Virus record (IMG/VR): IMGVR_UViG_2698536443_000004
Reading direction: 5' to 3' (one strand)
DNA length: 5,912 nt
Source of the DNA: a virus
Lineage: Duplodnaviria > Heunggongvirae > Uroviricota > Caudoviricetes
Positions 1 to 3,000 of this stretch are shown one piece after another. Position numbers: made by a program. The first letter of the stretch is position 1; each line of letters starts with the position of its first letter.

Positions 1-3000
1 GTTCATGGCTGAACTCCTGAAAATGGCTGTGAAAATATCGCCCGCGAAATGCCAGGCTGATTAGGAAAACAGGAAATGGGGTTAGTGAATGCTTTTGCTT
101 GATCTCAGTTTCAGCATTAATATCCATTTTTTATAAGCGTCGACGGCTTCACGAAACATCTTTTCATCGCCAATAAAAGTGGCGATAGTGAATTTAGTCT
201 GGATAGCCATAAGTGTTTGATCCATTCTTTGGGACTCCTGGCTGATTAAGTATGTCGATAAGGCGTTTCCATCCGTCACGTAATTTACGGGTGATTCGTT
301 CAAGTAAAGATTCGGAAGGGCAGCCAGCAACAGGCCACCCTGCAATGGCATATTGCATGGTGTGCTCCTTATTTATACATAACGAAAAACGCCTCGAGTG
401 AAGCGTTATTGGTATGCGGTAAAGCCGCACTCAGGCGGCCTTGATAGTCATATCATCTGAATCAAATATTCCTGATGTATCGATATCGGTAATTCTTATT
501 CCTTCGCTACCATCCATTGAAGGCCATCCTTCCTGACCATTTCCATCATTCCAGTCGAACTCACACACAACACCATATGCATTTAAGTCGCTTGAAATTG
601 CTATAAGCAGAGCATGTTGCGCCAGCATGATTAATACAGCATTTAATACAGAGCCGTGTTTATTGAGTCGGTATTCAGAGTCTGACCAGAAATTATTAAT
701 CTGGTGAAGTTTTTCCTCTGTCATTACGTCATGGTCGATTTCAATTTCTATTGATGCTTTCCAGTCGTAATCAATGATGTATTTTTTGATGTTTGACATC
801 TGTTCATATCCTCACAGATAAAAAATCGCCCTCACATTGGAGGGCAAAGAAGATTTCCAATAATCAGAACAAGTCGGCTCCTGTTTAGTTACGAGCGACA
901 TTGCTCCGTGTATTCACTCGTTGGAATGAATACACAGTGCTTATTCGTACTAATAAAATACCCAATTTTCTGTTTCTTGGTTGTGTCCAAAGTTATATTC
1001 AATATCTGGTGTTGATGTATCAATATTCTTCATACCATCAACAAGAGTTGATACAACAGCCAAATCTTGTTTGATTCTCATTAAATGGTATTTCTTCCGG
1101 CGCAATAAACTTTCAATGGCAAGTTTCTTCGTTGGGAATGCAAAAGATCTTTCTGCATTTTTTGCTACTTTCTTAATTGCATATCTATTTCTCCTTTGTT
1201 TCCATTCCTGTAACCACTGATTTGGTGCTGGTTTAAAATTAACAATCCAATGCGCAGGAACCAACCATGCATAATGCTCTGTCTGATGAAAAGCTATATA
1301 TTGAAGTGCGAATATTTTTATCCCATCTTCTTCAACTGTCGCCTGGAATCTCCAGAAAACAGGCATTCCATCATGTTCAGTTTCTGATTCAGGAAAAGGT
1401 ACGCTCCATGATTTTGTCATATCTCACCTCAAATAAGTGGTTTGCTGCCTAATTTCATTTTCTGGCGACCAACACAAGTCACCTCGCCGTCAGTTGTTTT
1501 GATTTCCGGTAGCCTGCCGCGTAAATGGCTACGTTTGGAAGACATACACCAGTTTCTGGTTGCTTATGTCCAAACTCATTCGCGTACACAATGGCCGCTC
1601 GCTCCAGATTGCGTCTGTATTCTTTCTGTTGCCAGATCACGTCCTGTGCCATGAACTTAATTGGCTTAGCGTCTTCTATGCGCTCAGGCGTTTCGTGAGT
1701 ACCTTTAGCCTGAATCTGCGCTCTGCTTAGAGTAGGGCGGTGTAATACTTCTGAACTTATTGCTTCTTCGCGGGCCAGTACGCCGTTAGCTAATGCCTTT
1801 GCCTTTAAACGCTCACGACGACGAGAACGTGAATTGCCTTTGAACTGAGTTCTGCGTGTCATATAGACCTCCTGATGAACTTTGGTGGTGTGGTAGGTGG
1901 GAGACCCATTTCGACCTGTTTCGGCCTACTTCAATTCGGCAATAGTCCCGCAGGCCTCGCCGCTTTACGTGCGACATATTCCCGTCCATGAACCCTTCAC
2001 CACACCCCAAAGTTCACTTTGGTTATTGCGCTTTGTCAGCGCCGTAGATTCATATTCGAATCGTTGTATATTCACCGCCCTGGTGAGTAATGCGTCCTGC
2101 TGACGACGATAATAATGAACCAATAGTTCGACATTATCAAGAACTATTGGTACGAATTTTGGTGATTTATTAACTCTACGAAGTATGATTCTGATATATA
2201 AGGAAATTTATTTTTGAAAATGTGGCTGATGAAGGTTATGCGGCAGGGATCATAACTGCATGGTTTAGCGAGTTACATCAATAAATACAATTGGTTATGT
2301 TTTTTAGGTGGGCGAACGTGAGGCAAAGAAAACCCGGCGCTGAGGCCGGGCTAGATTTTAAAGTATTTATCTTTTAGAGATGTAGATGTAAAACTTTTCG
2401 CCTTTGAAAATTTTTTGTCATCAGAAGGGCTTATGAACTCATCTTTTTTGTAGGGAACCGCTAATGCTGCATCACGTCTGCGAGGCAGCTTGCTTACTTC
2501 CTCGCGCTTTTTCATGATCAGTTATCCTTTAATAACCTATACAGTTTTGTAGGGGTACATCCTGAGGATATTGTTAAGTTCGTAGCACGCCTTTTCCGCC
2601 CATCATCGTATAAACGAAAACCAGTAGTAGACGAATTTTCTGCGTCAAAAACTATAGACAGTATAGCGTCCCCAGACTTTTTTTGCCATTCGCATGTGCC
2701 GTTAGTTGGTTTCGTCATCTGTAGACGCCAGTCAAGAACGCCATCACTTATAGCTGAGAGATCGTTTAGTACATCTAGTACGGATTGATATCTTTCATTT
2801 GGATCTACATGAATGCATTTGTTCACTATTGTTATTAATTTTTTATGTATATGGGGAGGATACTCTTTTAATGGATAGCAGCCATTAATTATCGACTCTC
2901 TGAGTTGTTCAATCGTGCTAAATGCAGATCTTTCTCTTTCAAAATTATCATGTCCAACACACATTCTATATATGGTTAATCCTGCCTGATATATGTCATA

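Follow-up and report, generated by a model that had tools for sequence, protein, structure and literature searches.

A conserved gene directly behind N in Shiga toxin phage 933W and HK97 encodes a predicted basic protein with a confidently modelled fold and no structural neighbour in the PDB

The interval between ea10 and the antiterminator gene N of phage lambda holds ral, orf28 and sieB, of which ral encodes restriction alleviation and sieB superinfection exclusion. The corresponding interval of the Shiga toxin (Stx) phage 933W (NC_000924) holds a single open reading frame (ORF) of 156 codons, L0079 or ST933Wp19 (NP_049479), which has carried the label 'hypothetical protein' on record since 1999. 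Here we analysed this ORF in a stretch of 5,912 nucleotides from the IMG/VR virus record IMGVR_UViG_2698536443_000004; that whole stretch is called the window. The window and 933W are 100% identical, the window position being equal to the NC_000924 position minus 7586. The ORF lies at 950-1420 on the minus strand and is intact, with an ATG start and a TAG stop codon. An original prediction made from the sequence had held that similarity to lambda ends after ea10, that one unrelated ORF of lower guanine plus cytosine (G+C) content fills the ral/sieB slot, and that this position suggests an anti-restriction, anti-defence or exclusion role.

Our analyses indicated that the ORF is a genuine expressed gene, and we see an even chance that its product is an accessory protein, soluble, basic and non-structural, which is encoded in the leftward early (pL) operon and carried as a cassette behind N. 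From the base composition, about 0.13 ORFs of 156-codon length are expected by chance per window. Pairwise comparisons of homologues (HK97, Rosenbergiella, Pectobacterium and Brenneria) gave ratios of nonsynonymous to synonymous substitution rates (dN/dS) of 0.07-0.17 wherever dS was unsaturated; in the remaining, more distant pairs, including those with a Salmonella phage, the synonymous sites were saturated while the proportion of nonsynonymous differences (pN) was only 0.17-0.30. Across 20 homologues, down to 55% identity, 40 residues were invariant. The start codon is preceded at a distance of 4 nucleotides by a Shine-Dalgarno sequence, GAGGTG (1425-1430, minus strand), which is conserved in 933W, phi296 and Bas106 and overlaps the TGA stop codon (1429-1431) of an out-of-frame remnant of a lambda-type N C-terminus.

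Alignment of the window with lambda revealed that positions 1-940 match lambda 33107-34045 at 99.1% identity, a block that spans kil, cIII, ea10 and 140 nucleotides past ea10 and stops 10 nucleotides 3' of the ORF stop codon, as foreseen; gam lies just outside the left edge of the window according to the 933W annotation. Comparison of the ORF product with lambda Ral, Orf28, SieB and N by blastp gave no similarity (best expectation value, E, 0.6, in the SieB test over 14 residues; nothing for Ral at E<=100), so that the slot does hold a single unrelated ORF. The G+C content of the ORF (0.357, or 35.7%) is indeed lower than that of the window (0.41), N (0.492) and ea10 (0.385), but the gene stk (0.354) and the gene annotated as RuvC-like (0.348) are equally AT-rich and the low value is therefore not peculiar to the ORF.

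The comparison with the N-proximal genes of Stx prophages, proposed together with the original prediction, showed an identical protein after N in many of them. It is encoded by the classic Stx phages Phi24B (vb_24B_11c), Min27 (ORF20), BP-4795 and Stx2 phage 86 and by dozens of Stx1a and Stx2a phages, while HK97 gp45 (AAF31125) is 99.4% identical to 933W L0079. Carriers amounted to 598 of the 5,426 complete E. coli genomes (about 11%), with up to four copies per genome and always under the label 'hypothetical protein', and the exact sequence was found on at least 1,000 contigs. The identical protein at 77 IMG/VR loci was surrounded by at least 22 upstream and at least 11 downstream contexts (500 nucleotides each), and the only sequence common to most of them was 62 nucleotides upstream and about 130 nucleotides downstream, the latter containing a hairpin and a terminator. 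The conserved 62-nucleotide linker (1421-1482, minus strand) contains the ribosome binding site (RBS) and the 3' end of the lambda-type N frame, which ends in GRQKMKLGSKPLI and a stop codon.

The usual place of the ORF is directly after N and before the first strong terminator. HK97 and 933W share window positions 815-2103 at 98.4% identity, including nutL, N, the ORF, the hairpin and the terminator. Homology to phi296 is limited to 818-1436, the ORF being located there directly downstream of an annotated ral, and homology to Bas106 to 942-1448, where the ORF follows a different N allele and a 54-residue ORF. The cargo found elsewhere behind the same N allele consists of SieB and two other ORFs, of three small ORFs, or of a 207-residue ORF, which argues that the present ORF is dispensable. 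Judged by these boundaries, the ORF behaves as a self-contained cassette of about 0.5 kb (RBS and ORF), embedded in an operon rather than a classical moron: its boundaries are gene-sized and a terminator (826-847) lies downstream, and no promoter-like site was found upstream in the scan.

The order of elements on the minus strand is a pL-like site, nutL, N, the ORF, a 14-bp hairpin, a hairpin-T6 terminator, ea10, cIII and kil. N (1479-1862, minus strand; 127 residues, PF25694 at E 2.1e-15) is the 933W/H-19B/HK97 allele and lies directly upstream of the ORF on the same transcript. The sole sigma-70 promoter-like site upstream of the ORF, TTGATA-17-CATTAT (2112-2140, minus strand), is located just upstream of nutL (2028-2094, minus strand, 933W annotation), where pL is expected, and a consensus scan of the minus strand from that site to the ORF found no promoter-like site. 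A terminator scan of the same interval found one weak site only, inside N (1560-1548; 5-bp stem with three G-C pairs), and the spacer between N and the ORF showed no significant RNA structure (z -0.29). The first strong intrinsic terminator after pL follows the ORF at 826-847 (minus strand; 8-bp stem with five G-C pairs, then T6); it is common to lambda and HK97 and appears as 'putative terminator' in the HK97 annotation. Since no promoter and no strong terminator separate N from the ORF and the first strong terminator comes after it, the ORF would be transcribed with N, proximal to pL. We infer that N and the ORF form the promoter-proximal unit of the pL transcript, and that the ORF is among the first two genes transcribed on induction of these prophages.

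Expression was assessed in one published RNA sequencing data set, which compares lysogeny broth (LB) with LB plus antibiotics (prophage induction) and gives printed values and log fold changes (logFC). When the prophage was induced, the printed value of the ORF transcript rose about 11-fold (logFC 5.5), parallel to N, while the cI transcript did not rise; the ORF level follows N and induction, not cI. The printed values fell about 4-fold across the terminator at 826-847 in uninduced cells and did not fall there after induction.

The protein matched the profile phrog_1636, an uncharacterised phage protein family, over its full length (E 2.7e-112, residues 1-156 on profile positions 1-156 of 156), and is the seed of PHROG 1636. 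An exhaustive profile search at E<1e-3 yielded 87 cluster representatives, most of which are stand-alone and 130-160 residues long, and all 72 aligned relatives matched phrog_1636. Two long domain-fusion matches (P0066 and P0080) were discarded as spurious, being low-complexity repeat proteins, and no informative fusion was obtained. Scans of the protein and the 72 relatives against Pfam (also at a lenient E<=10), NCBIfam and PADLOC assigned no family; the best PADLOC-DB 2.0 match of the protein was Cas1_II at E 0.018, and the relatives gave only scattered matches at E>0.001. A sequence search of the PDB gave no match. No mention of L0079, vb_24B_11c, phrog_1636 or the protein accessions was found among the papers searched; mentions of 'HK97 gp45' refer to gp45 of other phages, and the gene is passed over in the genome paper of Phi24B.

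Close relatives of the protein occur in Pectobacterium, Brenneria, Rosenbergiella and Cronobacter genomes and in one Salmonella phage, and wherever the context was viewed (Pectobacterium, Brenneria, Rosenbergiella) the homologue lay within a prophage. More distant relatives belong to prophages of marine gammaproteobacteria and to metagenomic phage contigs, and tblastn with a distant member found one Vibrio phage only. The integrated prophages examined carry the gene in an early operon running toward the integrase gene, and at the one locus that also showed a repressor gene it lies between repressor and integrase. Its neighbours include recT, yqaJ, ssb and methylase genes, and in three cases it stands directly upstream of xis or AlpA. 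The homologues in Pectobacterium, Brenneria and other prophages are located at the far end of the early-left operon, by xis and int and not by an antiterminator gene, which indicates that the position within the operon is not fixed.

A structure predicted from an alignment of 72 sequences reached a mean predicted local distance difference test (pLDDT) of 95.7 and a predicted template modelling score (pTM) of 0.83; a first model from 20 sequences (pLDDT 60) was discarded. The model contains a long three-stranded beta-sheet (strands at residues 19-30, 33-46 and 50-55), two short helices, a short strand at 83-86 and a 33-residue helix at 98-130, with ordered N- and C-terminal tails that are conserved only within the enterobacterial subfamily. 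A structure search against the PDB found no neighbour for the predicted fold, and thus neither the sequence nor the structure searches proposed with the original prediction matched a characterised protein. The search of predicted viral structures in BFVD gave 12 matches at E<1e-3. None of the 12 is characterised; the phages that encode them infect Erwinia, Achromobacter, Delftia, Rhizobium, Sinorhizobium and Tenacibaculum, and a Cellulophaga phage protein fell just past the cut-off (E 1.1e-3).

The protein (18.6 kDa) is predicted to be soluble and basic (isoelectric point 9.07), with 17 K/R against 5 D/E in the core at residues 56-130 and with acidic tails. It has no hydrophobic segment, the maximum Kyte-Doolittle average over 19 residues being 0.56 compared with 1.73 for the lambda SieB ORF. 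Conservation over the broad family is concentrated in the pattern K..K...SRFAF.TK..A...L..RK..QL.HLKR.L. Alignments of the broad family contain no conserved stretch of 7-10 residues. A likeness to AP2 and integrase-arm DNA-binding domains, prompted by the resemblance of the SRFAFxTKxxA-helix motif to their beta3-helix, was tried and rejected: hhalign against the AP2 (AtERF1) and lambda Int N-terminal domain sequences, both entered by hand, gave probabilities of 0.4% (E 0.14) and 0.8% (E 0.075), respectively, and the AP2 and Arm-DNA-bind families were not in the Pfam scan at E<=10.

In phi296 the homologue of 950-1436 (2986-3471 in the phi296 record) lacks one base just before the start and carries the start codon TTG instead of ATG, and the product annotated by the depositors is shorter, its first residue corresponding to M19. 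Members of the broad family likewise start near residue 19, which indicates that only the enterobacterial subfamily has the conserved N-terminal extension of 18 residues.

Taken together, the early co-transcription with N, the dispensability, the horizontal shuffling, the predicted solubility and basicity of the product and its fold relatives in many phages suggest an accessory protein that is dispensable and works within the cell at the start of lytic development. In many lambdoid phages the cassette (about 0.5 kb) would have come to lie directly behind N by recombination. As soon as infection or induction begins, the gene and N would be read together from pL, as the section of the transcript nearest to the promoter. 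The protein may then act inside the infected cell during lytic development, probably by binding nucleic acid or an acidic host protein through a conserved basic face (K84, K87, R91, K98, K109, K110 and K117), and would confer a conditional advantage, for example in host takeover or counter-defence, rather than carry out an essential step.

Several points weigh against the reading as an accessory protein of the early operon. The searches gave no homology that ties the protein to any activity, and the basic surface of the model is no more than suggestive of nucleic-acid binding. The printed value of the ORF in uninduced LB cells was 274, as high as that of cI (211), which could reflect some expression in the lysogen and not spontaneous induction of a subpopulation. 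Rho-dependent termination between N and the ORF is also possible, so the gene is immediate-early presumptively.

It is conceivable, but we would not expect it, that the ORF is the founder of a structurally unprecedented family of immediate-early effectors, co-transcribed with N and ancestrally coupled to it in translation, that disable host immunity or another host function within the first minutes. The fold relatives are distributed over phages of Proteobacteria and Bacteroidota.

With similar reserve we consider that the protein might serve counter-defence, by restriction alleviation or another inhibition of immunity, and do Ral's job for 933W and HK97. The ORF sits in the variable slot next to N where lambda has ral, would be made at the onset of infection, when the incoming DNA is most exposed, and is dispensable and horizontally shuffled like known anti-defence genes; distant members are often only a few genes away from phage DNA methylases and functions of the Gam/Abc2 type, and structural relatives occur in phages of many hosts. 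On the contrary, the adjacency to ral in phi296 is a co-occurrence, and the ORF is thus not simply the replacement of ral. The protein resembles no solved protein in sequence or fold, many solved anti-defence proteins included, and is basic and not an acidic DNA mimic. The sequence was absent from the supplementary text searched for one large accessory-gene counter-defence screen of 2025, and the plasmid collection contained the gene in only 11 non-mobilizable records, with identical or near-identical copies. Counter-defence is a reasonable and specific guess. As to the role drawn from position in the original prediction, the stretch from N to cIII/ea10 is indeed a variable cargo slot and its early transcription agrees with such a role, but the argument from same slot to same job is weakened by the arrangement in phi296 and by the homologues in Pectobacterium, Brenneria and other prophages that stand by xis and int at the far end of the operon; we cannot tell for or against an anti-restriction, counter-defence or exclusion role on this ground.

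The protein might instead modulate the phage's own DNA transactions (recombination, replication or excision) or its developmental decision (lysis-lysogeny), like the small genes of the exo-xis region; this reading is about equally open as counter-defence, which leaves it improbable taken singly. In the contexts examined the gene always belongs to the early-left operon, among recT, yqaJ, erf and ssb, and in several prophages it immediately precedes xis or AlpA and int. DNA binding would agree with the basic core, and the SRFAFxTKxxA motif followed by a helix is superficially like the AP2/integrase-arm beta3-helix, a likeness that failed the hhalign comparison.

A SieB-like superinfection-exclusion protein or a prophage defence protein shielding the lysogen is very improbable, and exclusion is the least likely of the three roles originally suggested. 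The consensus scan found no promoter-like site belonging to the ORF itself, the transcript in the single data set tracks N through the increase on induction while cI does not, the membrane segment of the lambda SieB ORF has no counterpart here, no PADLOC match was obtained, and the fold relatives are spread over phages of many hosts. Finally, a non-functional ORF, whether a chance frame or a decaying remnant, would agree with the AT-richness, the lack of a known domain and the label as hypothetical, but is already refuted by the conservation pattern (dN/dS 0.07-0.17 and 40 invariant residues), and the low chance expectation (about 0.13), the high pLDDT, the strong RBS and the induced transcript make it practically negligible.

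The region around the ORF contains further features. A 38-codon frame (1429-1545, minus strand) overlaps the end of N (stop codon 1479-1481) but is not in register with N as annotated in 933W; its last residues are VTCVGRQKMKLGSKPLI, followed by a stop codon. Alignment of the frame end VTCVGRQKMKLGSKPLI with the last 17 residues of lambda N (ITCSGRQKIKGKSIPLI) showed identity at 10 of the 17 positions, and window positions 1481-1538 match at 98-100% sequence lying under the annotated N of HK620, HK629, mEp213 and Stx1a_10051. These matches to N of lambda and of other phages argue that the 933W/HK97 allele of N ends early; by sequence comparison it seems to stop ahead of a frame-shifted relic of the C-terminus that is common among N proteins.

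Directly 3' of the ORF lies a near-perfect 14-bp RNA hairpin without a U-tract (905-938, minus strand), with the arms CUGUGUAUUCAUUC and GAGUGAAUACACGG. The region 805-950, covering this hairpin and the terminator, is strongly structured (z -5.25). The hairpin is conserved in lambda, HK97 and phi296, while in Bas106 another hairpin followed by a T-run takes its place, and a scan of window positions 400-2500 against Rfam gave no match. Its position coincides exactly with the border of the block homologous to lambda (boundary 940), and it may be a recombination boundary or an element of RNA processing or stability.

In the lambda-like block, ea10 (431-799, minus strand, 933W annotation; DUF2528) differs from lambda Ea10 by one residue (GWPSMDG compared with GWPPMDG); its label 'ssb' in the 933W and EDL933 records comes from an old name of lambda Ea10 and not from a single-stranded DNA-binding (SSB) domain. 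The kil frame (82-351, minus strand) is open for 89 codons and is so annotated in 933W, compared with 47 codons in lambda. The Pfam Lambda_Kil match covers only residues 44-74 of this long frame, which overlaps cIII almost wholly, so that where it truly starts is in doubt.

Between N and cI, downstream of cI and on the same strand as it, stk (2518-3564) and two ORFs (3558-4019 and 4087-4428) form an AT-rich cluster on the minus strand. Stk matched PADLOC kinase models (mad6 at 6.7e-50 and many PD-T4-6 models), the DUF3024 protein matched the candidate defence model PDC-S43 (5e-42), and the 153-residue ORF annotated as 'RuvC-like resolvase' had only a marginal Pfam RuvC match (E 0.042). The cluster at 2518-4428 looks like a prophage-borne defence cluster. 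A 76-nucleotide island at 2278-2353 is 92% identical to lambda 35754-35827, just downstream of rexB. It includes a G+C-rich hairpin (2331-2352) that scores as a terminator on both strands and coincides with the annotated tM of 933W, and this hairpin appears to be a conserved terminator at the end of the immunity transcript, common to otherwise unrelated immunity regions.

What is new here is the definition of the cassette boundaries, the assignment of the gene to the transcription unit that is read first, the breadth of the family and a confident predicted fold without a solved relative, for a gene carried by the classic Stx phages as well as HK97. As it stands, this is one more conserved hypothetical phage gene, neither a discovery nor in itself a surprise. 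The confident but unsolved fold, with similar folds in many unrelated phages, makes the protein a well-defined and cheap candidate for screens of counter-defence and host takeover, and it is a possible contributor to the establishment of Stx phages in new hosts.

Among the known systems, HK97 gp45, 933W L0079, Phi24B vb_24B_11c and Min27 ORF20 are the same protein (99.4-100% identity) in the same place after N, with the same downstream hairpin and terminator; all these copies are annotated as hypothetical or of unknown function, and the match therefore names the gene and does not explain it. Lambda Ral resembles the ORF product in being N-proximal, dispensable and encoded in the same variable slot of the pL operon, and differs in size (66 against 156 residues), in sequence, and in standing side by side with the ORF in phi296. 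SieB of lambda and P22 is likewise encoded in the interval between N and ea10/cIII, also behind the same N allele in Salmonella phage Oslo. The records of lambda and Oslo place the SieB ORF on the opposite strand, and its product has a hydrophobic segment; the 933W ORF is co-oriented with pL and its product is predicted to be soluble. The exo-xis genes (orf60a, orf61, orf63, ea8.5 and ea22) show no detected sequence relationship to the ORF, which in 933W lies at the N-proximal end of the operon; like it, they belong to the pL operon, are conserved but non-essential, and have functions that are modulatory or unknown, and their region is the site of the ORF homologues next to xis in the Pectobacterium and Brenneria prophages.

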